Assembly (NCBI GenBank): GCA_964576865.1
Contig: CAZNVK010000009.1
Location: forward strand, 2,001-66,000
Length of the DNA stretch: 64,000 nt
Direction: 5' to 3'
From: an uncultured Candidatus Poseidoniales archaeon
GTDB lineage: Archaea; Thermoplasmatota; Poseidoniia; Poseidoniales; Thalassarchaeaceae
A program made the translations under genes and the position numbers. Shown piece by piece: positions 7,822-64,000 of the stretch. The first letter of the stretch is position 1. Every line of letters begins with the position of its first letter. The notes beneath the pieces are model-generated. The model ran no database searches. It was not told where the DNA came from and saw nothing but the letters and a program-made list of their open reading frames with translations.

Positions 7822-8970
7822 GTGGTGCGATTTTCGGAACGAGCGAACAGCATCCGTCCAACTGGCGTTAGACGGATGTTCGACATGGCTGGCGATGACG
7901 CTGTCCAATTCGGTTTGGGGGAGCCGGATTTCCAACCTCCGGACATCGCCATCGAGGCATTCACCCGAGCGATGGAGGAAGGCCGCAACAAGTACACCAC
8001 AACCGCAGGCCTTCCACCGCTGCGTCAGAAGATTGCAGAGACCTGGCACCACCGTGACCCCACTTTGAGCGATGAGAACGTCTGTATGACCATGAGCGGA
8101 ACCAATGCACTGCTTGACATTTTCCTGGCATTGGTCGATCCGGGAGACGAAGTCCTCCTCCCCGAACCATACTTCCCTCTCTACCCAACGGATGTCGTGA
8201 TCTGCGGCGGCAACCCAATCCTCTATCCCTGCCTATTCGAGAATGGCTTCGTGCCGACAATCCCCGACCTCGAAGCTCGCTTGACGGACAAAACTGTCGC
8301 GATTCTCTACAATTTCCCAAGCAACCCGACGGGCGGAAATGTGACTCATGAACAGCGCGACGAATTGCTTGAATTCGCACGCGAGAACGATTTATGGGTC
8401 ATCACCGACGAGGTTTACGATCGCATCGTCTACGATTCCGAACACGTCTCATTCCTCGGTGCTGGATACGACAAAGTCATCATGATCAACTCATTTTCCA
8501 AGACCTTTGCAATGACCGGCTGGAGAATCGGCTACATCCTCTCGCCGGACCTCGAAGCGATGGGTCATATCACGAAGATGCAGTATTATGTGACGGCGTG
8601 CAGCAATGATGCGATGCAGCACGCCGTGCTCGAAGCCTTGGAGAAGGCCTCGGATTATCCGGCGCAGATGCGAGATGAATTCCATGCGCGTCGGGATTTG
8701 ATCTGCGAGCGATTGAACGCCATGCCGGGCGTCAGTTGCCACGTTCCGACCGGCGCATTCTACGTCTTCCCTAAGATCGATGTTCCTGGCATGAATAGCG
8801 AAGAGATCGCAATGGCTCTGCTCGAAGGCGGAGTTCTCTGCAGCCCCGGTTCCGCCTTCGGGGCTGCTGGTGAGGGCCACCTGCGCTTCGCGTACACGAT
8901 TGGACGCGAGGACATATCACGCGGCATGGACCGTGTCGAGAAGGTCCTCGCTGAACTGCGTGGAGAATGA
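7822..8970 (+). CDS. Pyridoxal-phosphate-dependent aminotransferase, class I/II (aspartate aminotransferase-like)
   Basis: 382 aa with a GTG start. Contains GLGEPDF, NPTG and the Lys motif SFSKTFAMTGWRIGY. Confidence 0.85.
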   Translation: MVRFSERANSIRPTGVRRMFDMAGDDAVQFGLGEPDFQPPDIAIEAFTRAMEEGRNKYTTTAGLPPLRQKIAETWHHRDPTLSDENVCMTMSGTNALLDIFLALVDPGDEVLLPEPYFPLYPTDVVICGGNPILYPCLFENGFVPTIPDLEARLTDKTVAILYNFPSNPTGGNVTHEQRDELLEFARENDLWVITDEVYDRIVYDSEHVSFLGAGYDKVIMINSFSKTFAMTGWRIGYILSPDLEAMGHITKMQYYVTACSNDAMQHAVLEALEKASDYPAQMRDEFHARRDLICERLNAMPGVSCHVPTGAFYVFPKIDVPGMNSEEIAMALLEGGVLCSPGSAFGAAGEGHLRFAYTIGREDISRGMDRVEKVLAELRGE

Positions 8971-38520: not shown

Positions 38521-39738
38521 ATGCGACACTTGCTCGCTACGACAATGATGCTGTTAATGATGACTGCGGCCCTTGCGGGCTGTGCGGGCGGCGAGGGCTT
38601 CACTCAGGAAGACATCGACGCTGCGCGTGAAGAAGGAAAGGCGGAAGGAATCGCCGAGGCGACACCAGTGAGCACGCTTGATACGATTATCGAGCGCGGT
38701 TCGATGAAGTGTGGTGTGAAGGAATCCCAGTACGGAATGGGATACCTTGACTCTGCGACAGGTGTACGCTCCGGATTGGATATCTCCTACTGCCGAGCGG
38801 TTGCTGCCGCTCTGGGGTTGAATCCTGACACGGATGTCGAGTACATTCCAGCGTCCGGATCAGACCGATTCGACAAGCTCGCCTCCGGTACGATCGACGT
38901 CCTGATCCGCACCACGACCTGGACCACCAGCCGTGATGCAGACCTGAACGCTGACTTCGCTGGAATGAACTTCTTCGACGGACAGGGTATCCTCGTTCGT
39001 GGAGACCGATATGAGCAGGCAGCATCCGAAAACTCTGCTGCAAACTTGAATGGAGCCAATATTTGTGTAGGAATCGGCACAACCACCGAGGGTAACATGC
39101 AAGACTGGTTCTCCTCAAGAGGAATCAGCTTCACATCTGTACCGGTTGCAGATGCTGCTGAGGCAACTGCAAAGTTCATCTCTGGCGAGTGCGATGCCTT
39201 CACTGGCGACATGTCCGCAATGGTCGCAAAGAAGTGGCAGCTCGACAGTGATGGATCTGTCACCAACGATGAAGGCGCAGTCGACATCTGGATTGCTCAG
39301 GAACTCATGTCCAAGGAGCCTCTCGGCGCTGCAACTCGTGACATGGACTCCGACTTCAAGGACGTCGTCGCATGGGTCTGGTACGGAATGGTCACAGCTG
39401 AGGAAATGGGAGTTACGGCAGCAAACGCAGCAGACTCCGCCGCAGACGCGTGCGCTTTGAACACTGCTGGCTCCGCAAACGACCCAGGGATGTGCCGCCT
39501 CTTGACCGAGAACCTTGGTCTTGGTACATCGGACAACCCGCTGCCCGGTGATTGGATGCAGAGAGTTCTCTCCGCATCTGGTAACTACGGTGAGGCATAT
39601 GACGATGCATTCTGCGATGGCAGCTACGATGGTGTCAGCGGATCGGATGCAATGTCGGGATGTCTCATCTCGCGTGCAGGAACTCTGAACGCTCTCGTCT
39701 CCGAGGGTGGAATCCAGTACGCTCCAGCAATGCGCTGA
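38521..39738 (+). CDS. Amino-acid ABC transporter substrate-binding lipoprotein (AapJ/family-3 like)
   Basis: 405 aa. Lipobox LAGCAG. The SBP_bac_3-like core is GSMKCGVKESQYGMGY...GTIDVLIRTTTWT. Confidence 0.75.
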   Translation: MRHLLATTMMLLMMTAALAGCAGGEGFTQEDIDAAREEGKAEGIAEATPVSTLDTIIERGSMKCGVKESQYGMGYLDSATGVRSGLDISYCRAVAAALGLNPDTDVEYIPASGSDRFDKLASGTIDVLIRTTTWTTSRDADLNADFAGMNFFDGQGILVRGDRYEQAASENSAANLNGANICVGIGTTTEGNMQDWFSSRGISFTSVPVADAAEATAKFISGECDAFTGDMSAMVAKKWQLDSDGSVTNDEGAVDIWIAQELMSKEPLGAATRDMDSDFKDVVAWVWYGMVTAEEMGVTAANAADSAADACALNTAGSANDPGMCRLLTENLGLGTSDNPLPGDWMQRVLSASGNYGEAYDDAFCDGSYDGVSGSDAMSGCLISRAGTLNALVSEGGIQYAPAMR

Positions 39739-39774
39739 ATTGAATTAATGAAGAGTATTGTCTGAATTACGAAA

Positions 39775-39806
39775 GCCCCTGAGGGGGGGTAAACTCCCTC
39801 AGGGGC
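39775..39806 (+). promoter_or_regulatory. Intra-operon 11-bp GC hairpin between the binding-protein and permease genes
   Basis: GCCCCTGAGGG (39775-39785) pairs with CCCTCAGGGGC (39796-39806), with a 10-nt loop. Confidence 0.5.
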
Positions 39807-39842
39807 CCATTCTCAAACTTCATCTTACGTCAGGTGCTCCCC

Positions 39843-42005
39843 ATGGAATCCTCGGGAAATAATATTCTGGATGATTTGGTTTCATTCCGCGCCCCAACAG
39901 ATAATGAGGGCAGAATTCGTCTCGCGCTCAGGATGATTCTGTTTGTAGCCAGCCTCGTTTTCATTTACATGTACTCGAAAAAGTTCCTGACGATGTGTGT
40001 GGATTACATCTCTCAAATGGCGAGGGACATCGAAATTTCAGGGGTCCAGATGAACCCCTCTCACATGCCGATGGATAAACTGACCCTTATCGTAGGCGGA
40101 ATGACTCTAGTCGCATACCTTCTGGTTCAGAATGACTTTGCCCAAATATCGCGACATCTCAGATCTCAGGATAAAGAAGAATCCTTCAATTTTCAATGGA
40201 TCTCTCCGTCACTATTCGGAATTTTCATGTTCCTAATCGCATTCATTCTCGTTGCATACTTCTTCGAATTATCGCCGAGTAGCCAGATTCCATTCCTATT
40301 CATTGGGGGTGCCATTGTTTCAGGAATCATCCTCTTACAGAATAATTTGACAGACATATTCGACGGCTCTGCGTTCAAAACGACTGCAGGACAGATTCAG
40401 GCAGGAATCACATTAGGCTCGATTCTAATCTTCGCCGCACTCACGCTTAACATCAGCTTCCTGCCAATTCTATCGCAGAACATTCCTCAAGTTCTCTCCA
40501 TTTTCATAACCCTAACCGTCGGTGTTTGGATGATTATTCTCAGGCAGGAGAGGGACAAGCCTGGCATCCAAGAGAAGAGAACCGCCGCAATGGCATATCT
40601 CATCCTTCTCCCATTCCTGATGTATCTATTGCTTAGGGTATTCTATCTACAGAATGATCCGGATCCAGTGATGGCGAATCGCTGGGAAGTGAAATTCGAT
40701 TTCATGGATAAGGTGAACACCTTCAAGATAAATCCGTGGCCAATGGAAGTCGAACCAAATGTAGATTCTCGTTGGTTATTCCTCAAAGCGGCCATCATCA
40801 ATTCCATTCGGGTGACTTTGGTGAGCATAGTACTGTGTACAATTCTTGGAACCATAGTTGGTGTCACACGATTGTCGTCGAACAAATTGGCAGCGTCGGT
40901 TGGAACCGTGTACGTAGAAGTATTCCGAAATCTTCCAGCAGCAGTGCTGCTCTTTCTCATCTCGACGCAAATCGGCTTCAAATTCCCATATTTCATCGAT
41001 GAGAAATCAATTCTCCCAATCGGTGATTCGATGGCGGCGATGTACTATAGCAATGAAGGAATTTGGTTCGTTACTGTATCCGATTATGCCCGTCTTCTCT
41101 TCGCGATAATCGGGCTAGCAATTCTACGAAGTGTGATGCGACATCGGTCGAGGGTGGAACCTCGGTTTATATCTAGACCTGATTCCACGTTAGGATTCCT
41201 GCGTAGACCTTTTTCATTCCTCGGATGGAGATTTGAACCCCTCGCTGCAGATTTATTCTTGATTGTTTCAAGTATTTTCTTCCTGATTCTGTTCATCCCC
41301 TTCATCACGACCCATGGAGGGGGTTGGAATGGGTTGATTGGCATATTCATACTACTCTACGCCCTCTATGTGACGACAAGCGTTGATGATGATGGGATGA
41401 ATTCCTTGGAAATTGATGACTCAGAGAAGGGTGTTCGGACGAGTTTCACAATATGGACGATGGCCTTCTCCTTCGCCGCTGGGATTACACTATCGGGTGG
41501 GCTTTCCTTCCCAGAATATACCAAGGATTGGAACAACGACGGCATCATCGACGCACCAGGGTCGTGGGATATTGTTGAGGGGACTGGATTTGAGATTACA
41601 CCGTTCTTCCTCGCCATGATCATCGGCTTGACTCTATTCACAGCAGCCGTTGTTGCAGAGATTGTACGCGGTAGTATCCAATCTCTTCCACGAGGTCAGG
41701 TAGAAGCAGCGATTTCTCTTTCATTGAACCCTTATCAGAGGCTTAGGTTGGTGATCCTACCGCAGGCCCTGCGCAGCATGGTTCCACTGCTGAATAATCA
41801 ATACATGAACGTCTGGAAGAATTCCAGCCTCGCGCTAATCGTCGCGTATACTGACATATTCTATGTCATTCTCGTCATGATGAACAATGTTGGAAAATTG
41901 ATTCCATTGTTCATTCTCCTTCTCATCACATACCAATTTGGTAGTTTGACAATTTCAGCTATCATGAATTGGTATAATTCCAGAGTTACGAGTGTGAAGA
42001 TATGA
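39843..42005 (+). CDS. Amino-acid ABC transporter permease (AapQ/HisM-type) with a large N-terminal membrane extension
   Basis: The C-terminal ~250 aa carry the family signature AAVVAEIVRGSIQSLPRGQVEAAISLSLNPYQRLRLVILPQALR. The ~450 aa upstream are additional TM helices. Confidence 0.75.
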   Translation: MESSGNNILDDLVSFRAPTDNEGRIRLALRMILFVASLVFIYMYSKKFLTMCVDYISQMARDIEISGVQMNPSHMPMDKLTLIVGGMTLVAYLLVQNDFAQISRHLRSQDKEESFNFQWISPSLFGIFMFLIAFILVAYFFELSPSSQIPFLFIGGAIVSGIILLQNNLTDIFDGSAFKTTAGQIQAGITLGSILIFAALTLNISFLPILSQNIPQVLSIFITLTVGVWMIILRQERDKPGIQEKRTAAMAYLILLPFLMYLLLRVFYLQNDPDPVMANRWEVKFDFMDKVNTFKINPWPMEVEPNVDSRWLFLKAAIINSIRVTLVSIVLCTILGTIVGVTRLSSNKLAASVGTVYVEVFRNLPAAVLLFLISTQIGFKFPYFIDEKSILPIGDSMAAMYYSNEGIWFVTVSDYARLLFAIIGLAILRSVMRHRSRVEPRFISRPDSTLGFLRRPFSFLGWRFEPLAADLFLIVSSIFFLILFIPFITTHGGGWNGLIGIFILLYALYVTTSVDDDGMNSLEIDDSEKGVRTSFTIWTMAFSFAAGITLSGGLSFPEYTKDWNNDGIIDAPGSWDIVEGTGFEITPFFLAMIIGLTLFTAAVVAEIVRGSIQSLPRGQVEAAISLSLNPYQRLRLVILPQALRSMVPLLNNQYMNVWKNSSLALIVAYTDIFYVILVMMNNVGKLIPLFILLLITYQFGSLTISAIMNWYNSRVTSVKI

Positions 42006-43612
42006 GTTCTCAAGGATTCGGTTTGCAGGCTTTCCTCGAACTCGAGGAGTCTATGGCTGGCAAACCAGGTTATTCTTTGGATGAGAATCGTTCTGTTCAG
42101 GTTACTGGCGCTACTGCAGTCTTTGCGGTGCTCTACGCAATACTAGGATCGGGAGGATTGCTTGAACTTCGCTCTGGGGCTATCGATGCTGGTGGTGGCG
42201 AACTAAACGCAAGCATTTACGCCGCTCTAGCGGGTCTATCGCTCGCATTCGCAATCTGGATATCGGTTACGATTTTAGCGAAGTTTACAGTAAAGAAGAC
42301 TTTGCTCACCGCAATCCTTGGTCTCATCAGCTCATGGTTAATTTTCATCGTGGTAGATGGCTTGAGCTACTTCGTTCTGGTCGAAGCAGAATGGGAGGTT
42401 GTTTGGGCCAATCGAGTCTTGGTAATCGTGGGACAACAAATGACAGAACAAATGACCCAAGCACCTGGCTCTGAATTCTGCATCTCGACATGTTATGGTT
42501 TGAACCAGAATTTCCGCCTATGGTGGATTCTTTACCCGACCTTTGGAGTCATCGCTGCTGCGTATGGAACGACAGCGGATCATCCAGCGAAATTCTTGAT
42601 TCCATTCACCATCGTCTGGGCATTCTTCGCACTTATCGCTGGGACTCCTACAGAGATCAACTATCACCGTATTGTGCCTCTGACCAACCTGTCAATCGCA
42701 CTGATAGTTGCCTTCCTCTGTTATGGCGGGTCCTATTGGTATTGCAGCAGATCTGAGGAGTACAAAGCAGTTCGACTGCGATCCTACATCACCATGGCAG
42801 CGGTCTTCACCTTCTTCTTCGCAATCGCAGTGATGGACCCGCCTCAGATAGTCAAAGATGCAGCAGTCTTCCTAGGAGCCACACCAGCTCAAGAGATGGT
42901 CAGTGGAACCCCGTCTTCTCTCGACAAATTGGCAGGAAACGGAATCGAAGCCTCCCAATGGGGTGGATTGTTCGTCAACTTGATTGTGGCGACCGCAGGA
43001 TGCGTTCTAGGCTTCGGCATTGGTGTCGTTCTAGCTTTCGGCAGACAGAGTTCACTTCCGTTCTTCAAGGTGCCATCGGTCCTCCTAATCGAATTGGTTC
43101 GCTCCGGACCGATGATCTGCTGGCTTTGGTTTGCGGTATTCTTGATGCCGGACTTGATCGATCCATTCTACGACACAGAGGATATCATGCGCATGCTTCT
43201 CATCTTCGGCTTGTTCGGAGGCTGTTACATCGCCGAGGTCATTCGAGGTGGCCTACAAGCGGTAGACAGTGGCCAGAAAGAAGCAGCGATGGCCCTCGGC
43301 CTTACATCCTTCCAAACCAAGATGACCGTCGAACTTCCTAACGCAGTACGAACAACACTACCATCCATTGTCAGCGTATTCATCGGACTGTGGAAAGACA
43401 CCACACTACTTTTCATCATCAACATCCTCGACTTCTTCAAACTGGCAAAGGATTTGCCGAATACCGATCTGCGCTTCCTCGGCGACTTCCTAGAGCCGCT
43501 ATACGTCACAGCCCTAGTGTTCTGGGCATTCGCATTCTATCTCTCAAGAGTCTCAATGAGGATTGAGAAGAGTCTTGGATTAGTCAAAGAAGGAGGAGGC
43601 GAATTAGCATGA
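42002..43612 (+). CDS. Amino-acid ABC transporter permease (AapM-type), extended
   Basis: 536 aa. Contains [42 protein letters not shown]. The start overlaps the previous stop. Confidence 0.75.
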
Positions 43613-44361
43613 GTACGAAGAGTGATGAGGTAATCATAGAAACTAGAGGAGTCAGAGTGAACTTCGGGGATTTCTGGGCATTGAAAGGAATTGACATGAC
43701 CATTCGACGTGGAGAAATCGTCGTTGTTCTCGGTCCATCAGGGTCGGGTAAGTCGACATTCATTCGCACTCTAAACCGTCTACAACCTCACAGTGCAGGA
43801 ACGATTGAAATTGATGGAATAACAGTGGATGAGGATACTTCAGTCGCAGATTTGAAATTCATCAGATCCGAAATTGGCTTCGTCTTCCAGCAATTCAATC
43901 TCTTTCCACACCTGACCATCATGGAGAATATCACCCTTGCTCCGATGAAGGTCAAGGGCATGTCGAAGAGAGCTGCTGAAGCAAAGGCGATGGAGTTGCT
44001 CGAGAGAGTCGGAATCCCAGAGCAGGCGTTCAAGTATCCGAGCGGGCTATCGGGAGGTCAACAGCAACGTGTCGCAATCGCCCGAGCGCTAGCGATGGAC
44101 CCGAAGATTATGCTCTTCGATGAACCGACATCGGCGCTCGACCCTGAGATGATCAAGGAGGTTCTCGATGTGATGGTCGACCTGGCAAAGCGAGACATCA
44201 CGATGATTGTCGTCACTCACGAAATGGGCTTCGCAAAGGAGGTCGGCGACCGCTGTATCCTATTCGACGAGGGTCATTTGATTGAGGAAGCACCACCTGA
44301 GCAATTCTTCTCGAATCCTGAGCACGAGCGAACCAAACTCTTCCTTGAACAGATTCTCTGA
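43609..44361 (+). CDS. Amino-acid ABC transporter ATP-binding protein (GlnQ/AapP-like)
   Basis: 250 aa. Walker [10 protein letters not shown], signature [15 protein letters not shown], Walker [13 protein letters not shown]. Confidence 0.9.
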
Positions 44362-55785: not shown

Positions 55786-56046
55786 GTGTTATCGCATATG
55801 CAGCCTCTCAGGAAAACGATGAGCCTGCAAGTTTCGAGAGAGAGAAGCCTTGTGAAAACGCTGACATGGAGGATAATCGCCTCAACAGACACATTCCTAA
55901 TCGGATTTTTCTTTACAGATAGTGCGACGATTGCCGCCTCGATTGCAGGTGTCGAAGTCGTCACCAAGATGGCTCTCTATTACCTCCACGAGCGGGGTTG
56001 GAATAACATTGGATGGGGCAAGAACGACGTGGTTCCAGCAGTTTGA
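55786..56046 (+). CDS. DUF2061-family small membrane protein
   Basis: Contains KTLTWRIIASTDTFLIGFFFTD...VVTKMALYYLHERGWN. Confidence 0.6.
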   Translation: MLSHMQPLRKTMSLQVSRERSLVKTLTWRIIASTDTFLIGFFFTDSATIAASIAGVEVVTKMALYYLHERGWNNIGWGKNDVVPAV

Positions 56047-56070: not shown

Positions 56071-56892
56071 TCACAGACCAATTGTCTCTGTGACATCCAT
56101 CAGATAGCGAATGAGTGATACTGCCACGGCTACTAGGTAAGGGTAGGTCAGAACACGTTGAGGAAGCATCCGAATCGCCACCTTGGCTCCTGCCCAAGAG
56201 GTTGCTAGAACCACGAAAGGAATCGCGAGTACAGCCATCTCCATCGATAGTAGGTCGCTGAGGAGAGATGGCTCGAAGAGCAGGTGAGCACCGATGGCCA
56301 CTGGCACGACTCGCATCACGATAAGGTAGGATGTGCCTGCAGCTCGGTGTGGCTCAAGCCCGAGAATCGTTCGATTCAACATGGTGAAGATTACCCCTCC
56401 TCCAACACCTATCAGACCGGCAGCGGTGCCACCACCCAGGCAACCGACTTTGTAAGTATAGAGCAGCGCGCCCTCGACCTTGGGATTGGTATCCTCGTCG
56501 TGAACGTCGGTGTGTTGCTCTTCCATGAGTTTCTTGAGTCCGCGATAAATCACCCACGCGAGAAGAATCGTTGCGAGAAACTTGACCGCATCCTCACCTA
56601 ATTCAGCGAACATCAGGTCGGCTGCAAGAGCACCGAGGACAGCTCCCCCGATAGCCACCAAACGCCCTTTGCGTCCGACTTCTGCAACCGTGTAACCGCC
56701 CTCGTCGTGCGCACGTCTACTGCCGATGCTGACGAACCAGACGAGGATTAGCGAGGCGACAATCGAGAGGTGGAGGTCCCAGCCGAGGATGAAGTGAAGT
56801 GTCGGAACGAAAAGTACACCACCGCCGAGTCCGAGAGGAGCGAACATGAAGGCGGTGATGAGGATAACAGCCAGCGCGTAGAATTCCTCCAT
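56071..56892 (-). CDS. TauE/SafE (TSUP, DUF81) family anion exporter, candidate sulfite exporter
   Basis: 273 aa with 7-8 TM helices. Contains FAPLGLGGGVLFVPTLHF and the internal repeat GLIGVGGGVIF. Its start abuts the stop of the Mo-enzyme gene. Confidence 0.75.
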   Translation of the reverse strand: MEEFYALAVILITAFMFAPLGLGGGVLFVPTLHFILGWDLHLSIVASLILVWFVSIGSRRAHDEGGYTVAEVGRKGRLVAIGGAVLGALAADLMFAELGEDAVKFLATILLAWVIYRGLKKLMEEQHTDVHDEDTNPKVEGALLYTYKVGCLGGGTAAGLIGVGGGVIFTMLNRTILGLEPHRAAGTSYLIVMRVVPVAIGAHLLFEPSLLSDLLSMEMAVLAIPFVVLATSWAGAKVAIRMLPQRVLTYPYLVAVAVSLIRYLMDVTETIGL

Positions 56893-59667
56893 TCACTCAT
56901 CTCCGTTGGTTTCTGCATCCGCGCTCGGCGCGAATCCGGGCATGTAGAAGTGTTCCTTGCGCGGGGCGAGCGGGCGCTTCATCCAGAGGGGTCTGCGCTC
57001 ACCTCGCGGATGAGTTTCACGCTCCTTGGCCCATTCATTCCAGCGTTTGTAGTAGGCGAATGACTTTTCGCGGTCGACTTCGATATCGCCGTATTCCTCG
57101 CCCGGTTCCGGGCGAGACAGCCTGACCTTTTGCAGCCAGCAGTGGGCGCCAGATATTGGGTCAGGCTGAACCGCGTGGGTGATATTCTGGTGAACTCCAC
57201 CATCGCGCCACCAGATGCGATTTGTGTCCGGATCGTCCGATTTCCACGGCTCGACCCCGCTGATGGTTCGCATCCTCATTTTCCCGTCACCCATGTCCTC
57301 GATGGCGACTTCATTGGTCATGAAGCGATTACCGCGGTCCTGACTGCGTCGCCATCGCCCGATGTGATGAGAACAGCCGACAACACCGGGTTTGATGCCC
57401 TCAGTCACCCAAACCTTGTCGACGAACCAACCGATTTCAGTCTCGATTTTCAGCAAGTCACCCTCGGCCACGCCCAATTTGCGAGCGTCCTTCGGGTGAA
57501 TCCAAATCGGGTTCCTGTGGGCGATTTCAACCAGCCATTTTGCATTGGCCGAGCGAGAATGGATGTGTTGAGGCAGGCGGAAATTGGGTAGCAGGCAATA
57601 CTCGTCCTCGCCAGCCAAATTATCTGGATGAACGTGCGATTTCTGGCGGTAGTGAGGAATCGAATGCTCGGGATAACCGAACTCAATCATCGTCTCCGAG
57701 TAGAATTCTTGCTTTCCGCTCGGAGTCGGCCAACCCTCCTCCTTGTGCTTCTCATAAGTCGCCTCCTCGATGAGGAAAGCCCCGTGACGACGCATGTAGC
57801 CGAGCGCGTCGGTCCCCTCGGCATCAGCCGCTTCTGGAAGTCCTGGAACGCGCTCGAAGAGATACTGATAGTACTCGTCAATGGTGATTTTCTCACCCTT
57901 GCGATAAGGACTCATGAAGTGCTCACGGATGCCCATTGTGCCGTCGTCGATGCGCCAAGACAACTCGATCCAGAATTCATCTTCTTCCCAAACTTCGCCG
58001 GGGTTGATCTCGTGCGTGAACTCAACTTCGCGCCCTTCTCTCCTTGCGTATTCTCGCAAAACGGGTTGCCGGAACGCCACCCACTTGCCCGATGATGTAG
58101 CGTATGAGTTGACGTCGTGCCGCTCACTTGAATGTCCCATCGGCAGGACGTAGTCGGCGAAGAATGCGGTCTCGTTCCAAGTTGGGGTGAGCGCGATGTG
58201 GCAGCCGACCGCCTCTTCGTTTTCGAGCATCTCCATCCATGAGAATCCGTCGGGGTATGTCCAAACTGGATTGAAGACACGGGTGAAGTAGACGTCCATC
58301 GAGCCGCGCCCGTCCTTGACGAGGTGCGGCAAAATGTGGCTCATCTCGAAGTGGGAAAGGGTGTATTCGGGCGGGAAATGAAGTTCGTTCCAGCCGTCGG
58401 GGTCCGGTGGAACATCGAAGAGAGACGGTTTGAATTTCGACCATGAATTCGGGCTCGTGCCGCCCACCGTTCCAACCGAGCCGGTCAGCACGTTCAGGAA
58501 GTGGAGAGTTCGGCTGACCTGCCAGCCTCCGAGGTTACCAATTGCTGCACTGCGCCACACATGCGTACACAATTGACTACCGGCGCTGGCAACGACTTCG
58601 CCCGCCTCGATCACCTGTTCGACAGGTATTCTGCATTCGGCGGCGGCGAATTCGGGAGTGTATTCAGCGTATTCCTCGACGAGCAATTCGATGAATCGCC
58701 CAAACTCGCACGGCTCGTCAGAGTGAACCGCGTCCATCCACATCTCCCAATTGACCTGAGTCTCCATGAATTCGCGGTCAAACAACCCGCGCTCGAGAAT
58801 CATCTTCGCCCAAGCGAGGAAGAGCGCGGGCTCGCTGCCCGGCCATGTCGGAAGCCAATGGTCAGCCATGGCCGCCGTATTCGAAAGTCGAGGGTCGATG
58901 ACAATCAGCTTCGCACCATCCATCATCCCCTCGAGAATACGTTGTGCGTGCGGATTGAAATAATGCCCAGTTTCGAGGTGCGAGGAGGTCAGTAGGATGA
59001 CCTTGGCATTGGTGTGGTCGGGGCTTGGTCGGTCGTGTTTGTGCCACAGAGCGTAGCCGGTTCGCGCTCCAGCTGAGCAGATATTCGTGTGCGAATTATG
59101 CCCGTCGACCCCCCACGCCTTGAGGACTCGATTCGCGTACCCTTCGTGACCGGGCCGCCCAACATGGTAGACGACTTTGTCGACGCCGCCGCGCTTGAGT
59201 GAGGCTCGAATTTTGGCGGCGATTTCGTCGAGCGCTTGGTCCCAGGAAATCTGTTCCCAGCCGCCTTCTCCACGCTTTTCTGTGCGGCGAAGTGGATGCA
59301 TTATGCGCTCGGTATCCTGAATTTGATTGATCGTCGCGGGACCTTTTGCGCAATTTCGCCCGCGCGAGCCGGGGTGGTGTGGATTGCCTTCGAATTTCGA
59401 CACCTCCCCCGAGTCCTTGTCGACGTATGCTAGCAGACCGCAGGCCGATTCGCAATTGAAGCAGGTTGTCGGGACTAACGAGTAATTCTTCTCGACGCGA
59501 ACCGGCCAAGCATTTGCATCGAATTCGGTGTGGTTGTGCCACTCGTCTGGGTCGGGGAATTTGCGGAGCGGCTGCAGGTTGCCTCCCGCGTGCTCGCGGT
59601 CGAGGTTGGGGATGATGCGCAGTTTTTGCGCGAAATCCTCGATGAACGTCCTACCCATCTGAATCAC
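56893..59667 (-). CDS. Molybdopterin oxidoreductase catalytic subunit (DMSO-reductase family; Psr/Phs/Ttr/Soe-type), no signal peptide
   Basis: 924 aa. The N-terminal FS0 motif is CFNCESACGLL...GRNCAKG. A candidate Mo-ligand context is NSHTNICSAG. There is no RR motif or hydrophobic h-region at the N-terminus. Confidence 0.8.
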   Translation of the reverse strand: MIQMGRTFIEDFAQKLRIIPNLDREHAGGNLQPLRKFPDPDEWHNHTEFDANAWPVRVEKNYSLVPTTCFNCESACGLLAYVDKDSGEVSKFEGNPHHPGSRGRNCAKGPATINQIQDTERIMHPLRRTEKRGEGGWEQISWDQALDEIAAKIRASLKRGGVDKVVYHVGRPGHEGYANRVLKAWGVDGHNSHTNICSAGARTGYALWHKHDRPSPDHTNAKVILLTSSHLETGHYFNPHAQRILEGMMDGAKLIVIDPRLSNTAAMADHWLPTWPGSEPALFLAWAKMILERGLFDREFMETQVNWEMWMDAVHSDEPCEFGRFIELLVEEYAEYTPEFAAAECRIPVEQVIEAGEVVASAGSQLCTHVWRSAAIGNLGGWQVSRTLHFLNVLTGSVGTVGGTSPNSWSKFKPSLFDVPPDPDGWNELHFPPEYTLSHFEMSHILPHLVKDGRGSMDVYFTRVFNPVWTYPDGFSWMEMLENEEAVGCHIALTPTWNETAFFADYVLPMGHSSERHDVNSYATSSGKWVAFRQPVLREYARREGREVEFTHEINPGEVWEEDEFWIELSWRIDDGTMGIREHFMSPYRKGEKITIDEYYQYLFERVPGLPEAADAEGTDALGYMRRHGAFLIEEATYEKHKEEGWPTPSGKQEFYSETMIEFGYPEHSIPHYRQKSHVHPDNLAGEDEYCLLPNFRLPQHIHSRSANAKWLVEIAHRNPIWIHPKDARKLGVAEGDLLKIETEIGWFVDKVWVTEGIKPGVVGCSHHIGRWRRSQDRGNRFMTNEVAIEDMGDGKMRMRTISGVEPWKSDDPDTNRIWWRDGGVHQNITHAVQPDPISGAHCWLQKVRLSRPEPGEEYGDIEVDREKSFAYYKRWNEWAKERETHPRGERRPLWMKRPLAPRKEHFYMPGFAPSADAETNGDE

Positions 59668-59668
59668 C

Positions 59669-61081
59669 TCAATGCAGGGTCTCCAATTGCGGCTTCATCA
59701 CCGTGAGGTGGGCATGGTGGCATACTACTGCGATCAGCAGAACGGCTGCCGCCCACATCAGCAATTCAGTTGATGTCAGCAGAACCAGTGTTGCCGCGCC
59801 AAGAAGCAACATTTCGAACAGCATCTTGACAGCCAACAAACGGTCTTTGGACCAGGCGCGCCCGCGCGCCTGTCCGAATAACCAAGCGGTGTAAACGCCG
59901 GTTAGAGTTGCCAGAGGAATGCCGGCGAAGGCCAGATATTCGAGGTAGGCGCGGTCGAGGTCGAAGAACAAAACCGCGCCACTGAGAGCCAATACTCCGC
60001 CGAATGCACCTAAGATGTATGCCCCCTTCACAAGCCAAGAATTCCAATTCGGCCGGAGCATAACGTAGAGGAAGCGCTCAGGTCGGTCGAGATCTTTCAC
60101 CAATAGCAGTCCAGTCAAACCTAGGAAGGCGGTGCAACCGATGACCAATGTCCACCACAACTCATCGGTCATCTCCAATGCGCCAGCAAACATCGCCAGC
60201 ATCGCAACCAGATATGTTCCCGCGGCGAGTGCCTTGGTAACGATGTAAGCCGAGACTTCCCAACCCCACAGAATTCCCTTCGAGGGCTGGTCATAACTGC
60301 GCTTGGGCCGCTCAGCCTGTTCATCTAATCTGTCCATGACATCACGGATGACTGCCCTATCGCGTGGATTTGCAGCCCGCGCCTTCTTCTCTAACGCTAA
60401 TTGCACAATCATCGAATTGGTATCGGCCGCGCCCAAGCGAGAATCAGCATACTTGGCAAAATGCCCAACGCCCGCGGCCTGATCTGTCCACAGATATTCA
60501 CCGCTACGCTCAGTAGCGTGAGGGTCGAGCATCTCATCACTCGTCTCGACATAGAAGACATTCGGCCGCGCTCCACTCTCAGGCTTGCGCACCGTCGTCT
60601 CGTGGTCACGCAAGTAACCAGAAATCGATGAGTTAGGGTCGTCCAAATCCCCAGAGACAATCGCCTCGACTGGACAAACGATCACGCAAGCCGGCTCGTA
60701 AGAATGCTCAATCCGGTGCGCGCAATAATTGCACTTGGCCGCAGTGCCCTTATTCGGGTCGATGTACAAAGCATCGTAAGGACAAGCTTGCATGCAAGAT
60801 TTGCATCCGATACAGCGGTCATCATCGAAGTCGACGATACCGTCCTCGCGCGTGAATAACGCAGTAGTCGGACAAATCGTCGTACACGGCGAATCTTCGC
60901 AATGATTGCAGCGATGCACCGAGAACTCGCGCGTGACATCAGGATAAGTCCCCTTTTCGATGTATTTGACGTGGGTGCGGTTGACTCCGATAGGAACGTC
61001 GTGTTCGGACTTGCAGGCGACCGTGCAGGCATGGCAACCGATACACTTACGATTGTCAATGACAAAGCCAAAATTAGTCAT
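59669..61081 (-). CDS. Four-cluster [4Fe-4S] subunit (PsrB/NrfC/DmsB-like) fused to a short NrfD/PsrC-like membrane anchor
   Basis: 470 aa. Four Cys groups are present: CIGCHACTVAC, CNHCEDSPCTTICP, CIGCKSCMQACP and CNYC...CVIVCP. The C-terminal ~210 aa have ~5 TM helices with DLDRPERF, NSWLVKG and YTAWLFG motifs. Confidence 0.75.
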   Translation of the reverse strand: MTNFGFVIDNRKCIGCHACTVACKSEHDVPIGVNRTHVKYIEKGTYPDVTREFSVHRCNHCEDSPCTTICPTTALFTREDGIVDFDDDRCIGCKSCMQACPYDALYIDPNKGTAAKCNYCAHRIEHSYEPACVIVCPVEAIVSGDLDDPNSSISGYLRDHETTVRKPESGARPNVFYVETSDEMLDPHATERSGEYLWTDQAAGVGHFAKYADSRLGAADTNSMIVQLALEKKARAANPRDRAVIRDVMDRLDEQAERPKRSYDQPSKGILWGWEVSAYIVTKALAAGTYLVAMLAMFAGALEMTDELWWTLVIGCTAFLGLTGLLLVKDLDRPERFLYVMLRPNWNSWLVKGAYILGAFGGVLALSGAVLFFDLDRAYLEYLAFAGIPLATLTGVYTAWLFGQARGRAWSKDRLLAVKMLFEMLLLGAATLVLLTSTELLMWAAAVLLIAVVCHHAHLTVMKPQLETLH

Positions 61082-61099
61082 GTTTGACTTCCTCCAAGA

Positions 61100-62248
61100 C
61101 TAGGCAACCATGTGACTGGCAGCACACTCATTTTTTCCTAAATCCATTATATCCTGTTCAGATTCTTCGGGTGAAATCCACCCAGAATTGACCTTTCTGA
61201 TTTCATCATAGACAGCGGGTTGGTCCCTCATGTTCTCAACAATATATTCGACGAATTCTTCTTCGTTTTCAATGCCATATATCTCTTCGTTTAGAGATTT
61301 CACTGTTCCGAAGTCATTCAGAATAAGGTAATCCTCATTCGCCTCTAAGTCCCAGTCGGTATAGTGCCCAGGAAGAACTAGTAGATCATCTGGCATTACT
61401 GCGATTCGAGTTTTGAGTGTCTCGTACAATTGCTTGGCCCACTCGACTACTTTACGACCAAGATCAGGTCTTCCTATTGATACGATGAAAACGGTATCAC
61501 CAGATATCATAAATTTCTCATCGACAACATAAGTCGTTGAACCGGGTGTGTGGCCTGGAGAGTGGGTGCAGAGAACCGTTGGTCCGCCCCCCCGGGCGAA
61601 ATTGATTTCTTGACCATCAGAGACAGGAGCGTAAGTGATGGCAGTGCCCGCGTAATCTCCTTCGTGCGCAATATATTGTGCTCCAGTCAATTCGCTTAGA
61701 CGAGGGCCTCCAGATATGTAATCCGCTTGGAGATGTGTTTCGAACACGTGAGTGATTTTCACATAATGTTCTTCGGCGAATGCAGTGTAGAAATCTATAT
61801 TCCTACTAGGGTCAAAAATCATCATCTGCCCTTCGAAAATCAAACCATAAGAGCACGAGGCTTTCCCAGGGCGGTTAAATTGCCAAACGGTGTATCTTCC
61901 TCCTCCGGGTATTTGTTTTGGAATCAGGACATTTCCCCATGAAACAATTCCTTCTTCAAGCCAACGGACATCTGAGAAACCTGATGATTTGAGCAGTTCT
62001 GCAACAAATCTCGCTGAACCCTCCTTAGCACAAATCACCCGAATAGAATCCGATTTCTTCAATTGTGATGATGCGGCATCAGGTGTCTCAATGAAATCAA
62101 AATAGGGAATGTTCCTCATGTCAACCTCATTCGGCCCTTCAACCATGAATCGGCCATGATCATCCTCATTTCTCACGTCTAGAAAAACATAATTTTTCTT
62201 TTGTTCAATCCACTGATACAATTCAGATGCGCAGTAACTTTCTGTCAT
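61100..62248 (-). CDS. Rhodanese domain fused to a metallo-beta-lactamase-fold (persulfide-dioxygenase-like) domain
   Basis: 382 aa. The rhodanese loop is VICAKEGSAR. The MBL motifs read ETHLQADYISG, SPGHTPGS, SGDTVF and LPGH. Confidence 0.7.
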   Translation of the reverse strand: MTESYCASELYQWIEQKKNYVFLDVRNEDDHGRFMVEGPNEVDMRNIPYFDFIETPDAASSQLKKSDSIRVICAKEGSARFVAELLKSSGFSDVRWLEEGIVSWGNVLIPKQIPGGGRYTVWQFNRPGKASCSYGLIFEGQMMIFDPSRNIDFYTAFAEEHYVKITHVFETHLQADYISGGPRLSELTGAQYIAHEGDYAGTAITYAPVSDGQEINFARGGGPTVLCTHSPGHTPGSTTYVVDEKFMISGDTVFIVSIGRPDLGRKVVEWAKQLYETLKTRIAVMPDDLLVLPGHYTDWDLEANEDYLILNDFGTVKSLNEEIYGIENEEEFVEYIVENMRDQPAVYDEIRKVNSGWISPEESEQDIMDLGKNECAASHMVA

Positions 62249-62257
62249 CGGCCCAAC

Positions 62258-62767
62258 TCACATGAATAACTGAAGATCTGCATCCACAGCGAAGTCGAGG
62301 AAGGCGGCTGCTCCAGCATATGATATTCCTTCAATGAAATCCTTCTCCTCAAAGCCGAATACATCCATCGTCATTTGACAAGCAATCAGGTCGACACCGA
62401 GTATTTGGCACATATCACGGAGTTCGGTGATAGTTGCGACTCCCTTATTCTTGAACGTCTTCTTCATCAATGAAGTTGCAACGGTGTCAAATCCAGGCAT
62501 TACTCCACTTATTGCATGAGGAATTGGCCAATCTATGGACTGAAACCCTTTGGGTCCAAAAGGCATTTTCATTGGCATCGCAGGGTTAGCTGCAGGAGTT
62601 ACTTTGGCCTTGATTTCAGGCTTGAGTAAAGGTAGACCGTAGAATGTGAAGAATACTTTCACTTCGATATCCATCGCTGCAGCTGTCGAGGCCAAGATGA
62701 ATGGAGGATATGCCCAATCGAGCGAACCCTGAGAGGCGATTATCGCCATCTTCTTCTTCTCGCCCAT
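62258..62767 (-). CDS. DsrE/DsrE3-like sulfur-relay protein (COG2210-type)
   Basis: 169 aa. Contains KKMAIIASQGSLDWAYPPFILASTAAAMDIEVKVFFTFYGL and the conserved Cys context DLIACQMTMD. Confidence 0.7.
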   Translation of the reverse strand: MGEKKKMAIIASQGSLDWAYPPFILASTAAAMDIEVKVFFTFYGLPLLKPEIKAKVTPAANPAMPMKMPFGPKGFQSIDWPIPHAISGVMPGFDTVATSLMKKTFKNKGVATITELRDMCQILGVDLIACQMTMDVFGFEEKDFIEGISYAGAAAFLDFAVDADLQLFM

Positions 62768-63007
62768 TTACTCACCTTTTCTTACCAAGAAGTAGAACTT
62801 GCCCTCACCCTCACTGGATTCAATGATTTTGTGACCAACTCGGTCAGCCCATGCAGGCATATCCTTGCAGGAGCCGGGGTCGGTTGTTGTGACTCGAAGG
62901 ATTTCTCCAGGAGCCATCGAGTCGATTTTCAATTTTGTTTTCAAGACTGGCAGCGGGCAGTTCATCCCAGAGCAATCAATTGTTTCATTTGGTTCAGTCA
63001 TCTTCAT
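62768..63007 (-). CDS. tusA: TusA/SirA-family sulfur carrier
   Basis: 79 aa. The Cys-Pro-x-Pro motif is CSGMNCPLPVLKTK. Confidence 0.8.
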   Translation of the reverse strand: MKMTEPNETIDCSGMNCPLPVLKTKLKIDSMAPGEILRVTTTDPGSCKDMPAWADRVGHKIIESSEGEGKFYFLVRKGE

Positions 63008-63377
63008 TCACCTCAAGAAATGAGTCGAGTAAGTGGCTCCATTCACCACTTCCTACCTTCGTTGAGCACTCAGTGAAGCACGCGAATAATTTGTGCACGA
63101 AAGGATTTGAAACGGAATAGAATCTCCTAGTCCCTTCTTTTCTGACATCAAGGATGCCTCTCTCATTCATTCTTGAGAGATGCTGGGAGGTCCTAGGCTG
63201 GCTGAATCCAAGGTCCCGCTGGACTTGACCCATGGTTTTTTCTCCCTGCGCAAGAAGTTGCAGGATTCGCAAACGATCCGGGTGGCCCAGAGTACGGAGC
63301 ATGATTGCCGCAGCCTCCCTGAACCTCTCTTCTCTGCCAATAACGGCTTCATCTATGGAAGCGTTCATCTCACTCAC
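62994..63377 (-). CDS. ArsR/SmtB-family transcriptional regulator (BigR/SqrR-like context)
   Basis: 127 aa. The wHTH is LGHPDRLRILQLLAQGEKTMGQVQRDLGFSQPRTSQHLSRM. The only Cys residues are in FACFTEC near the C-terminus. The gene overlaps tusA by 14 nt. The start is GTG 63377 or ATG 63368. Confidence 0.75.
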   Translation of the reverse strand: MSEMNASIDEAVIGREERFREAAAIMLRTLGHPDRLRILQLLAQGEKTMGQVQRDLGFSQPRTSQHLSRMNERGILDVRKEGTRRFYSVSNPFVHKLFACFTECSTKVGSGEWSHLLDSFLEVNEDD

Positions 63378-63431
63378 TACAAACCTACGGGTCCAACCTA
63401 GAATAAAAGAATTGCGATATAATAACTGTTG

Positions 63432-63451
63432 AATATAAGAGTATGATTATA
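63432..63451. promoter_or_regulatory. Candidate operator: inverted repeat ATATAA-N8-TTATAT in the divergent promoter region
   Basis: Perfect 6-bp arms in the AT-rich spacer between arsR (minus strand) and the second tauE gene (plus strand). Confidence 0.3.
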
Positions 63452-63488
63452 TACTGCTGCTTGCGCGGTTGCCGCTCAGGGATGTTTG

Positions 63489-64000
63489 ATGGCAATTGAA
63501 TCGCTACTCGCAATCTTATTGATACTCACCGTAGCTTTGCTGTTCTCTCCCATCGGCCTAGGAGGTGGGATACTATTCGTTCCAATTCTACATTTTTTAC
63601 TAAAATGGCCGATTGAACAAGCGATGATAGGATCCTTGAGTTTAGTATGGATGGTCTCACTTGGTTCGATGATTGCCCATCACAGTGTTGGGGAAGATGA
63701 TCCTGAGGCTGCGAAGACTGGAATATTGATGTACGTTCCCGCAGCGATTATCGGTTCACTGATCGGATATTTCTTGCTTGAGAACGTATCAGAATTCTCA
63801 ATCAAGATTCTAGTCATAATTTTGATGTCGTTTATCTTGATTACTAGTATTGAGAAAACGTTCAGGAAATCAACTAAAATGAAGAATATCTCTGTTGAAG
63901 AGAAAACTAATTCCGCACCACAAAGTTACAGAGTAGGTTGTGGCGTTGGTGGACTTTCTGCGGGAGTTTTGGGAATTGGTGGTGGAGCGGTTATGGTAAT
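63489..64000 (+). CDS. TauE/SafE (TSUP) family permease, second paralog, truncated by the window end
   Basis: Read by eye from ATG 63489: MAIESLLAILLILTVALLFSPIGLGGGILFVPILHFLLKW...GIGGGAVMV. There is no stop before 64000. The N-terminus is closely similar to that of 56071..56892. Confidence 0.7.
   Translation, partial: MAIESLLAILLILTVALLFSPIGLGGGILFVPILHFLLKWPIEQAMIGSLSLVWMVSLGSMIAHHSVGEDDPEAAKTGILMYVPAAIIGSLIGYFLLENVSEFSIKILVIILMSFILITSIEKTFRKSTKMKNISVEEKTNSAPQSYRVGCGVGGLSAGVLGIGGGAVMV

Follow-up and report, generated by a model that had tools for sequence, protein, structure and literature searches.

A predicted cytoplasm-facing molybdoenzyme lineage of Poseidoniales and its optional sulfur-relay cassette

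What does a molybdoenzyme of the DMSO reductase superfamily do in a planktonic marine archaeon, and how is it tied to the sulfur-carrier genes that adjoin it? The question is posed by one end of a 64,000-nt stretch (hereafter, the window) from an uncultured Candidatus Poseidoniales archaeon (assembly GCA_964576865.1, contig CAZNVK010000009.1, positions 2,001 to 66,000 of the forward strand). Seven minus-strand genes there encode, in order, an ArsR regulator, TusA, DsrE2, a rhodanese–metallo-β-lactamase fusion (Rhd-MBL), an iron–sulfur (FeS)/NrfD fusion (FeS-NrfD), a molybdenum (Mo) catalytic subunit, and the permease TauE1; a second permease gene, TauE2, starts divergently. A first-pass annotation, made from the letters alone, had read the seven genes as one transcription unit and proposed a route from persulfide to sulfite and on to a SoeABC-like, quinone-linked oxidation or to export. 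Our comparisons point to a composite region, with an FeS-NrfD/Mo core kept throughout the Poseidoniales and a cassette that comes and goes, and they tip toward a sulfite:quinone oxidoreductase of separate origin as the function of that core.

The core consists of two minus-strand genes. FeS-NrfD (59669–61081) encodes a 470-aa protein with Pfam Fer4_11 and NrfD matches, and the gene behind it encodes a Mo/W-bis(pyranopterin guanine dinucleotide) (Mo/W-bisPGD) catalytic subunit with Pfam Molybdop_Fe4S4, Molybdopterin, and Molydop_binding matches. The first-pass annotation ran this second gene from a GTG (56893–59667, 924 aa), an open reading frame that exists as described; its start is more likely the ATG at 59658 (56893–59658, 921 aa), because homologs align from residue 3–4 and a GGTGA lies upstream, and the spacing to FeS-NrfD would then be 10 nt. 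TauE1 (56071–56892, minus strand; Pfam TauE, 80.2 bits), a TauE/SafE-family anion permease and presumed sulfate/sulfite exporter, has a start codon that abuts the Mo stop codon. Otherwise, the open reading frame list, Pfam, and NCBIfam returned the seven genes and the divergent TauE with the coordinates, domains, and successive spacings (−14, 0, 9, 18, 1, and 0 nt from arsR to TauE1) of the first pass.

By the names of its homologs, the host belongs to Poseidoniales (Marine Group IIb, MGIIb, within Marine Group II, MGII), in agreement with the marine euryarchaeon first proposed. The Mo subunit has hundreds of homologs above 80% identity, which, where named, are Candidatus Poseidoniales, Thalassarchaeaceae, or Poseidoniaceae, and 2,524 sequences fall into a single cluster at 90% identity. 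A conservation scan, run with a single genome for each species, gave 44 loci, every one of them from Poseidoniales, and a synteny table built by tblastn covered about 38 informative Poseidoniales loci (compared loci are cited by L numbers and compared proteins by P numbers). All informative loci have FeS-NrfD immediately before the Mo gene. In MGIIb-type loci, TauE lies downstream of Mo and points the same way; other loci have it convergent, and a few lack it. Most MGIIb loci also keep, between TauE1 or Mo and a thiolase gene, a gene for a small DUF2061 membrane protein (55786–56046, plus strand, convergent with TauE1 in the window); it is doubled in L014, L015, and L029.

The cassette is distributed differently. 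ArsR-TusA-DsrE2-Rhd-MBL sits directly upstream of the core in about 9 of 30 species, with representatives in both Poseidoniales families (L005, L014, L015, L019, L020, L031, L033, L035, and L042), and about 21 species are without it. Where present it always occupies the same site, as a block of ~3.3 kb that includes TauE2 (63489–64000, plus strand, clipped by the window end; Pfam TauE, 68.7 bits), a divergent TauE/SafE-family permease 36% identical to TauE1. A gene-order search in Poseidoniales found the window's seven-gene order again in L005, L033, and L076/77/78, and its recurrence in these independent lineages exceeds chance; the ArsR-to-Mo part also occurs in L015, L019, L020, L035, L042, L068, and L069. 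Unbiased sampling through Rhd-MBL homologs again placed Rhd-MBL upstream of, and adjoining, FeS-NrfD and Mo in L068, L069, and L076–78. L076 (3591–6569) has three more genes just ahead of arsR; their products are a 115-aa single-domain rhodanese, a 350-aa thioredoxin-reductase-like flavoprotein, and a protein of 410 aa without a family match.

Close relatives differ by clean indels of 3.2–3.3 kb in pairwise blastn. The interval carrying TauE2, ArsR, TusA, DsrE2, and Rhd-MBL in L005 (5244–8579) and L033 (5348–8578) corresponds to 60–110 bp in L006/L036 and L009, between flanks of 82–94% identity; TauE2 is deleted jointly with ArsR-TusA-DsrE2-Rhd-MBL in the cassette-free relatives and is counted here as a cassette member. 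Cassette-free L036 (~8490–8560) retains a scar coding the final Rhd-MBL residues (DIMDLRKNQCVAPSH) directly before FeS-NrfD, and L014 (7120–7390) has an in-frame deletion joining TusA to the DsrE2 C terminus, two sequence traces that we read as cassette loss in progress. L027 (136–1425), with only TauE and ArsR directly ahead of FeS-NrfD, represents a third state of erosion.

Composition adds a further boundary. GC content at third codon positions (GC3) in the window is 0.40–0.52 across the cassette (TauE2, 0.40) vs. 0.59–0.68 in FeS-NrfD, Mo, and TauE1, with the break exactly at 61081/61100. The same break is seen in L005 and not in L015, L019, L035, or L042, and the cassette proteins of the window and L005 share 67–69% identity vs. 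95% for Mo. The idea of the cassette as a recent island was upheld only in part, the break being limited to the window/L005 lineage and composition elsewhere being host-like. Presence/absence indels, the deletion scar, and the GC3 break argue for a composite of universal core and optional cassette; the single seven-gene unit, taken as ancestral, does not stand. Our reading is that the cassette has long accompanied the core, with frequent losses, and that the window's lineage probably acquired its present copy by lateral replacement from a relative of lower GC.

At the junction of the two parts, Rhd-MBL and FeS-NrfD are separated by 18 nt carrying a GGAGG, where cassette-free genomes have a 60–110-bp intergenic region. 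Because so short a gap leaves no promoter room, the core in the window is probably transcribed by read-through from upstream; cotranscription of cassette and core is plausible, and insertion of the cassette would have placed the core under an ArsR-controlled promoter. A palindrome, TATATAA-N8-TTATATT (63432–63453, unstranded), lies within the 111-bp arsR/tauE2 intergenic region (63378–63488), is kept in the window, L005, L033, and L014, and is a candidate for both a shared TATA box and the ArsR operator. A scan for sigma-70 promoters and intrinsic terminators, which is not designed for archaea, gave counts at or under shuffled expectation. The regulator (62994–63377, minus strand; 127 aa; Pfam HTH_5; NCBIfam HTH_metalloreg, 73.5 bits against a cutoff of 55) has Cys100 and Cys104 in its C-terminal helix, a CxxxC limited to the window/L005/L033 group; the α2 Cys is absent, a single Cys is conserved across MGII orthologs, and the BigR model gives 48 bits against a cutoff of 155. 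By these features it classes as a generic ArsR/SmtB-family winged-helix member, not a two-Cys sensor of the BigR/SqrR type.

We next placed the catalytic subunit. Compared by equivalog cutoff, it falls under every NCBIfam model: PhsA (187.5 bits; cutoff 694), DmsA/YnfE (173 bits), Fdh (130 bits), ArrA (120 bits), TtrA (98 bits; cutoff 1750), and NarG (34 bits). Its top PDB match is PsrA (2vpw_A, 1e-37). An exhaustive search of 1.84 billion representatives returned few full-length relatives above 40% identity, followed by Psr/Phs-like proteins at 28–36%, which score 320–407 bits on the PhsA model vs. 187 for the window protein. The ligands of the FS0 cluster are Cys66/69/73/103, and the Mo-ligand Cys194 lies in the invariant motif DGHNSHTNICSAGAR; the form DGHNSHTN(I/V)CSxGAR is invariant across the cytoplasmic group of the family, and Cys194 aligns with the ligand Cys of PsrA and ArrA. 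With the FS0 Cys motif, the three Pfam domains, and the ligand Cys all present, the subunit is classed as a Cys-ligated member of the DMSO reductase (MopB) superfamily. Reading its substrate from active-site residues failed: the His(−4)/Thr(−3)/basic(+5) pattern resembles the oxyanion pocket of ArrA yet is common in Psr/Phs-like representatives. A deep branch of the family (P0123 of L060, Myxococcota UBA796; P0125; P0128) has no Mo-ligand Cys, and P0125 has no FS0 Cys residues either; P0123 is neighbored by a sigma-54 activator, an MBL-rhodanese, two YeeE/YedE-type Sulf_transp genes, and an FeS fusion. This branch may be a noncatalytic or differently ligated derivative, and the L060 context is down-weighted because the ligand Cys is missing.

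Comparison of N termini revealed no RR motif or hydrophobic leader of a twin-arginine translocation (Tat) signal in the window protein or in any member of the cytoplasmic group, and the enzyme is for that reason predicted to face the cytoplasm. The Tat-less N termini (MGII, haloarchaea, Rhodococcus, Thermomicrobium roseum, and related sequences) have a "YPxPxxW" extension in common, as well as the FS0 motif CFNCExxCGLLAY; RR leaders occur in sister branches (P0127, P0145, and P0180), in an Azoarcus protein, and in every Psr/Phs-like representative. In a neighbor-joining (NJ) tree of 735 columns, rooted on FdhF and bootstrapped 100 times, the family groups with its Tat-bearing sisters in one clade (98/100), within which the cytoplasmic group is recovered at 83/100, separate from the Psr/Phs-like radiation and from DmsA/YnfE. 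The subunit thus appears to represent a DMSO reductase lineage outside any named family, the SoeA lineage being compared by description only.

The partner protein is equally distinctive in build. A [4Fe-4S] part of the PsrB/ArrB/TtrB type (~residues 1–180; 16 Cys in four ferredoxin-type groups; top NCBIfam match TtrB, 180 bits) is joined to an NrfD/PsrC-type anchor (~residues 273–467), whose Pfam NrfD match covers only model positions 7–194 of 313. In an AlphaFold2 model, usable only for the membrane part (the FeS domain has pLDDT < 50 and a shallow alignment), residues 273–467 form six long helices at pLDDT 80–95. Foldseek matched the fusion to ArrB (E 5e-6) and to PsrC with bound menaquinone (2vpw_C; E 1e-3, TM 0.53). 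Its top 120 homologs are all MGII fusions of ~470 aa, and the fusion is kept in all MGII, Rhodococcus, haloarchaea, and T. roseum. Tat-bearing relatives encode FeS and NrfD as separate proteins in the same order, which argues that the B-C fusion and the inward orientation were derived together.

The cassette proteins are of familiar sulfur-transfer kinds. TusA (62768–63007, minus strand; 79 aa; Pfam TusA, 86.7 bits) has a CPxP motif with active-site Cys17, conserved in MGII and in the Rhodococcus homolog (39% identity). DsrE2 (62258–62767, minus strand; 169 aa; Pfam DrsE_2, 167 bits) has Cys130, scores borderline on NCBIfam DsrE2 (206 bits against a cutoff of 210), and is the most conserved cassette protein (76–94% identity among MGII). 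By motif and family, both are canonical sulfur carriers. Rhd-MBL (61100–62248, minus strand; 382 aa; Pfam Rhodanese, N-terminal, and Lactamase_B, C-terminal) has its nearest PDB matches in the CstB-/ETHE1-type persulfide dioxygenases (PDOs) 3tp9, 3r2u, 4ysb, and 4chl, at only 1e-12 to 1e-19. Its invariant residues are rhodanese Cys73, His172, His233, Asp251, His295, and the C-terminal Cys375 (GKNECAAS). The iron triad of ETHE1 is 2-His-1-Asp, drawn from the first His of motif 2, the His of motif 3, and the Asp of motif 4; its counterparts His172, His233, and Asp251 are invariant here, but motif 2 reads H-L-Q-A-D-Y where H-x-H-x-D-H/F is usual. Full-length homologs occur in Rhodococcus (34%) and haloarchaea (32–33%), and relatives at 53–55% identity, with the same variant motif, in Desulfobacterales and the Olavius Delta-1 symbiont. 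In the Desulfobacterota loci L074 and L075 (8001–9960; Olavius Delta-1 symbiont type), Rhd-MBL also has the C-terminal GKNECAAS, and the genes around it and TusA encode acyl-CoA dehydrogenase, enoyl-CoA hydratase, and CoA-transferase.

A persulfide-type relay module is joined to a Mo/FeS/NrfD oxidoreductase, as the first-pass annotation had it. The cst locus of Staphylococcus aureus is laid out as tauE <> cstR-cstA-cstB-sqr. The likeness that the annotation drew to cst and BigR-Blh loci holds for the divergent TauE beside a small repressor, for the TusA, DsrE-type, and rhodanese domains, and for the fusion of rhodanese to an MBL-fold, PDO-like protein; it fails for the regulator, which belongs neither with CstR of the CsoR family nor with the two-Cys BigR/SqrR proteins. 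Other differences from cst are that the transfer domains lie on separate proteins and the rhodanese is N-terminal, vs. C-terminal in CstB (PMC12934615), that Rhd-MBL has THLQADY and a conserved Cys375 in place of the Cys-Gly loop, that the window has no sulfide:quinone oxidoreductase (SQR), and that a molybdoenzyme follows the cassette.

That coupling, which the annotation thought foreign to such loci, is real and not peculiar to the window. Full-length Mo homologs at 46–54% identity were found on annotated plasmids by tblastn, and the overall range across Rhodococcus, haloarchaea, T. roseum, and uncultured bacteria is 46–68%. Plasmid pRHL3 of Rhodococcus jostii RHA1 encodes ArsR, two DUF202 proteins, two MBL proteins (one a full-length Rhd-MBL homolog, 34%; the other CstB-like), DsrE (32%), TusA (39%), a 506-aa FeS-NrfD fusion (46%), Mo (53%), and Mrp/NBP35. 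Natrinema and Halomicrococcus plasmids carry a SoxB-like gene, Rhd-MBL (32–33%), a nonorthologous TauE, the FeS fusion, Mo, and MobA, and T. roseum has a CsoR/RicR-family regulator with the FeS fusion and Mo. Among uncultured bacteria, L064 (62% identity) combines a CstB-type MBL-rhodanese, the FeS fusion, Mo, and a SulP sulfate permease (546 bits, above cutoff), with an SQR-like flavoprotein near. In L067 (68% identity; a bacterium, judged by EF-G), co-directional genes for an HdrB/C-like Fer4+CCG protein, two GcvH-like proteins, lipoate ligases, LipS1 (above cutoff), a LipS2-like protein, a thioredoxin-like protein, and TusA run into the FeS fusion and Mo; we take these to be the accessory set of sHdr-LbpA sulfur-oxidation clusters. 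The accessory set that L067 matches is described in PMC11094781.

Several of these loci have further features of their own. The SoxB-like homolog of haloarchaea (596 aa; L049 1231–3021, L054 1413–3203; TIGR04486, 213 bits, below cutoff) could hydrolyze an S-sulfonate intermediate; L049 and L054 also place a universal stress protein and an IclR regulator beside Rhd-MBL, TauE, FeS, and Mo. After Mo in Rhodococcus and haloarchaea stand Mrp/NBP35, an FeS-cluster carrier, and/or MobA, a Mo-cofactor guanylyltransferase (L050 10799–11968; L049 11179–13027; L054 11252–11932), probably as dedicated maturation factors. A TorD/NarJ-type chaperone is absent beside the cytoplasmic family; TorD is present in the three-subunit loci of Sulfurovum and Azoarcus. 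The Mo gene of L001 (10001–12856; GCA_030426805.1) is 70% identical to the window's and falls inside the Poseidoniales clade (NJ, 100%), although its host is a Gram-negative bacterium of 70% GC; an FeS-NrfD partner is missing within 22 kb, and the gene is flanked upstream by a 350-aa secreted protein without a family match and downstream by multihaem cytochromes. It looks like an inter-domain transfer whose partner was lost or replaced.

Taken together, we judge it somewhat better than an even bet that FeS-NrfD and Mo form a SoeABC-like sulfite:quinone oxidoreductase of separate origin. Sulfite oxidation is favored because the predicted enzyme faces inward, because it lies repeatedly downstream of two sulfite-forming systems (PDO-type and sHdr-type), because anion exporters of three unrelated origins adjoin it (two TauE lineages and SulP), because its hosts are aerobic, and because thermodynamics suit that direction. 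The sulfite/sulfate couple (~−516 mV) can reduce menaquinone (~−74 mV), and quinol-driven reduction of thiosulfate or polysulfide runs uphill. Pathway logic makes sulfite the product of both persulfide dioxygenases and sHdr (PMC12934615, PMC8551704). Under the proposed scheme, sulfane sulfur of persulfides would be taken up and relayed via TusA, DsrE2, and the rhodanese domain, as family knowledge suggests; the MBL domain would turn it, less certainly, into sulfite or an S-sulfonate/thiosulfate equivalent; the Mo enzyme, judged by context and architecture, would oxidize cytoplasmic sulfite to sulfate and pass two electrons through FS0 and the four FeS clusters to the quinone at the anchor; and TauE would export the anion. 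In cassette-free genomes, the core would handle any other cytoplasmic source of sulfite. The SoeABC-like route of the first pass is thus the one best supported by comparative context, with its persulfide-to-sulfite step hanging on an Rhd-MBL of variant motif.

The genes of soeABC run A-B-C, whereas the window's order is (BC)-A. SoeABC is also built of three separate subunits with an eight-helix SoeC (PMC8076601), in contrast to the two genes, fused B-C, and six helices found here. In other respects the core resembles SoeABC of Allochromatium vinosum, Aquifex aeolicus, and Ruegeria pomeroyi: a membrane-bound enzyme in which a Cys-ligated Mo-bisPGD subunit carrying FS0 is combined with an FeS module of four clusters and an anchor of NrfD-like type, with no Tat signal and a cytoplasmic catalytic side (PMC8076601, PMC10100899). 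Inward orientation is the hallmark of SoeABC, which oxidizes sulfite and delivers the electrons to quinone (PMC8076601). Both share a genomic link with TusA and cytoplasmic sulfite-producing systems, tusA-soeABC linkage being known in sulfur oxidizers (PMC11507549). A survey of the bSreA/SoeA lineage counted 5 archaeal members among 1,354 (PMC10100899); this scarcity, like the COG0243-only naming of the MGII proteins in IMG, hints indirectly against a place in that lineage. Since subunit architecture and gene order differ and the comparison is by description, membership in the SoeABC family is not claimed.

A number of observations weigh against sulfite oxidation fed by the cassette. Motif 2 of MGII Rhd-MBL is Gln/Tyr-substituted (THLQADY) where Rhodococcus and Halomicrococcus have H-x-H-A-D-H, and the CstB Cys-Gly loop is absent, PGHYTDWDLE aligning with PGHGAGSPCGK of 3r2u and 3tp9. 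According to a 2026 preprint, that loop, which follows motif 5, is self-S-sulfonated in CstB, and CstB-type fusions release thiosulfate, not sulfite (PMC12934615). The 54%-identical Rhd-MBL of sulfate-reducing Desulfobacterota pairs with TusA only, in two contexts (L074 and L075), so that Rhd-MBL plus TusA reads as an independent unit also in anaerobes. Given the variant motif, the missing loop, and these sulfate-reducer homologs, an O2-dependent, sulfite-forming step by the MGII protein is not secure. Sulfur genes are absent from three bacterial contexts of the enzyme (L001, L063, and L065). A TATA-like GATATAATGG, which lies ~65 nt ahead of the FeS-NrfD start in the 3′ end of Rhd-MBL and survives in the L036 scar, may be an internal promoter for the core. 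Active-site residues, as far as the alignments go, do not separate substrates, and the function of the family is read from sequence and context, public names being generic. The nearest named families by sequence are, moreover, reductases (PhsA, 187 bits; PsrA, 1e-37; TtrB for FeS), and a related cytoplasmic enzyme of Aquifex was first described as a sulfur reductase (PMC10100899), which makes reaction direction unreadable from sequence.

These last points sustain the strongest alternative, namely that the Mo enzyme is a cytoplasm-facing, quinol-driven reductase of sulfane sulfur, polysulfide, thiosulfate, or tetrathionate, used for detoxification or redox balancing and supplied by TusA, DsrE2, and rhodanese. 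We regard this as unlikely, although it draws on more than sequence rank. The ttr genes of Salmonella run ttrBCA, the same order of FeS, anchor, and catalytic subunits as here, and TtrB is the top match of the FeS domain. The Tat-bearing sister branches, in which FeS and NrfD are separate genes, resemble conventional periplasmic reductases, and the Rhd-MBL family of MGII is also found in anaerobic sulfate reducers. Bacterial cytoplasmic SreA groups with SoeA, and such enzymes can be assayed as reductases (PMC10100899). PsrABC and PhsABC share the cofactor set and are the best-scoring named relatives of the Mo subunit and of the anchor fold, but they are Tat-exported to the periplasm, have separate B and C subunits, and stand at only 28–36% identity in a separate clade; Ttr is likewise Tat-exported, periplasmic, and unfused, and the TtrA model gives just 98 bits against 1750. 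By textbook energetics, quinol-driven thiosulfate or polysulfide reduction is endergonic, and the anchor has lost two of the eight NrfD helices, those forming the second bundle implicated in ion translocation (PMC8076601). The hosts (MGII, Rhodococcus, T. roseum, and haloarchaea) are aerobes, the neighbors are sulfite producers and anion exporters (PDO-type MBLs, sHdr/LbpA, SulP, and TauE) and not sulfide-handling genes, and a reductase downstream of sHdr or a PDO would run a futile cycle.

A second alternative would have the Mo enzyme itself oxidize TusA/DsrE2-bound sulfane sulfur (persulfide or thiosulfonate) to sulfite or sulfate, as a Mo-based third alternative to rDsr and sHdr with Rhd-TusA-DsrE2 as dedicated delivery. 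We consider it improbable; we know of no DMSO reductase-family enzyme that acts on a protein persulfide. The rhd-tusA-dsrE2 trio is nonetheless the known delivery set for rDsr and sHdr, and the A. vinosum Rhd_2599-TusA-DsrE2A genes and shdr clusters place the same carrier families in synteny beside a presumed client enzyme (PMC11094781), as the carriers here and in Rhodococcus abut the Mo enzyme; the window differs in that the partner is an MBL fused to rhodanese plus a molybdoenzyme, in a heterotrophic planktonic archaeon, and not rDsr or sHdr. If the MGII Rhd-MBL is not a true dioxygenase, oxidation would be left to the Mo enzyme. Against this, the enzyme lacks neighboring carrier genes in ~70% of Poseidoniales species, in T. 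roseum, and in several bacteria, the preceding sHdr/LbpA-type cluster of L067 already performs that oxidation, and L064 and RHA1 have canonical CstB-type PDOs.

The last alternative, equally remote, is loose adjacency between a self-contained, cst-like persulfide detoxification cassette at a recombination-permissive site and a Mo enzyme with a nonsulfur substrate (arsenite/arsenate, selenium oxyanions, formate, or an S-/N-oxide): the discrete indel with its different GC3 in the window lineage, the Desulfobacterota pairs without a Mo enzyme, the generic ArsR/SmtB regulator, and public "formate dehydrogenase" labels speak for it, whereas Fdh, ArrA, and NarG scores lie far below their cutoffs and below PhsA, ars, sel, and fdh accessory genes were not found nearby, and the same pairing in Actinomycetota, Halobacteria, both Poseidoniales families, and uncultured bacteria, with differing regulators, PDO architectures, and exporters, is hard to explain without a functional link.

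Elsewhere in the window, a low-GC stretch (38521–44361; GC 0.455–0.49 vs. a window mean of 0.56) encodes an amino-acid-type ABC transporter, with an SBP_bac_3 protein, then unusually long permeases (723 and 536 aa), and the ATPase, followed by an MscS channel.

Public databases hold the family under names that are all generic or wrong: "molybdopterin-dependent oxidoreductase," "hypothetical," or "formate dehydrogenase." IMG gives the MGII Mo proteins only COG0243 names and no soeA KO-type name, and no SoeA-named entry occurs among the Mo-subunit homologs or cluster members. Two Rhodobacteraceae plasmid matches, H14 and H20, were considered as soeABC and proved to be something else. Also ruled out as equivalents were the MOLY/YTD clusters of sulfur disproportionators, which are extracellular Tat/TorD-dependent enzymes, and the SUOX-type sulfite oxidase reported for Lutacidiplasmatales is an unrelated enzyme. 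In the literature, we found no description, in MGII or elsewhere, of the locus, the fusion, or a link of PDO/TusA/DsrE to this enzyme lineage, and the MGII genome literature searched does not describe the enzyme despite its 2,524-member cluster. A survey does record unnamed Cys-type MopB lineages, one of them sister to TtrA (PMC10100899). The parts are all of known kinds; the novelty lies in how they are combined, in an anchor both fused and shortened, in a lineage that stands apart, and in the presence of that lineage throughout Poseidoniales.

A wider reading joins these elements, and we offer it tentatively, as something short of even. FeS-NrfD and Mo would be a new cytoplasmic sulfite-oxidizing lineage, arisen independently of SoeABC through Tat loss and B-C fusion in a Psr/Ttr-like ancestor, and serving as a general sulfite sink after PDO- and sHdr-type systems in aerobic Actinomycetota, Chloroflexota, and Halobacteria and in all Poseidoniales, which are the most abundant Euryarchaeota of the plankton. 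Rhd(N)-MBL with THLQADY and a C-terminal Cys would then be a new glutathione-independent, self-substrate class of sulfur-oxidizing (or hydrolyzing) enzymes.

If sulfite oxidation by the core is correct, MGII would detoxify the sulfite released from persulfides and organosulfur breakdown and gain respiratory electrons from it, which would give archaea a part in the oxidative marine sulfur cycle. The enzyme would be a second inward-turned member of the DMSO reductase family, one with a fused, shortened NrfD anchor that informs how such modules evolve. Close homologs in the tractable Rhodococcus jostii and opacus and in cultivable haloarchaea make the hypothesis directly testable. For heterotrophs that have persulfide dioxygenases but neither SorAB nor SoeABC, it would be a candidate for the "missing" sulfite oxidase.

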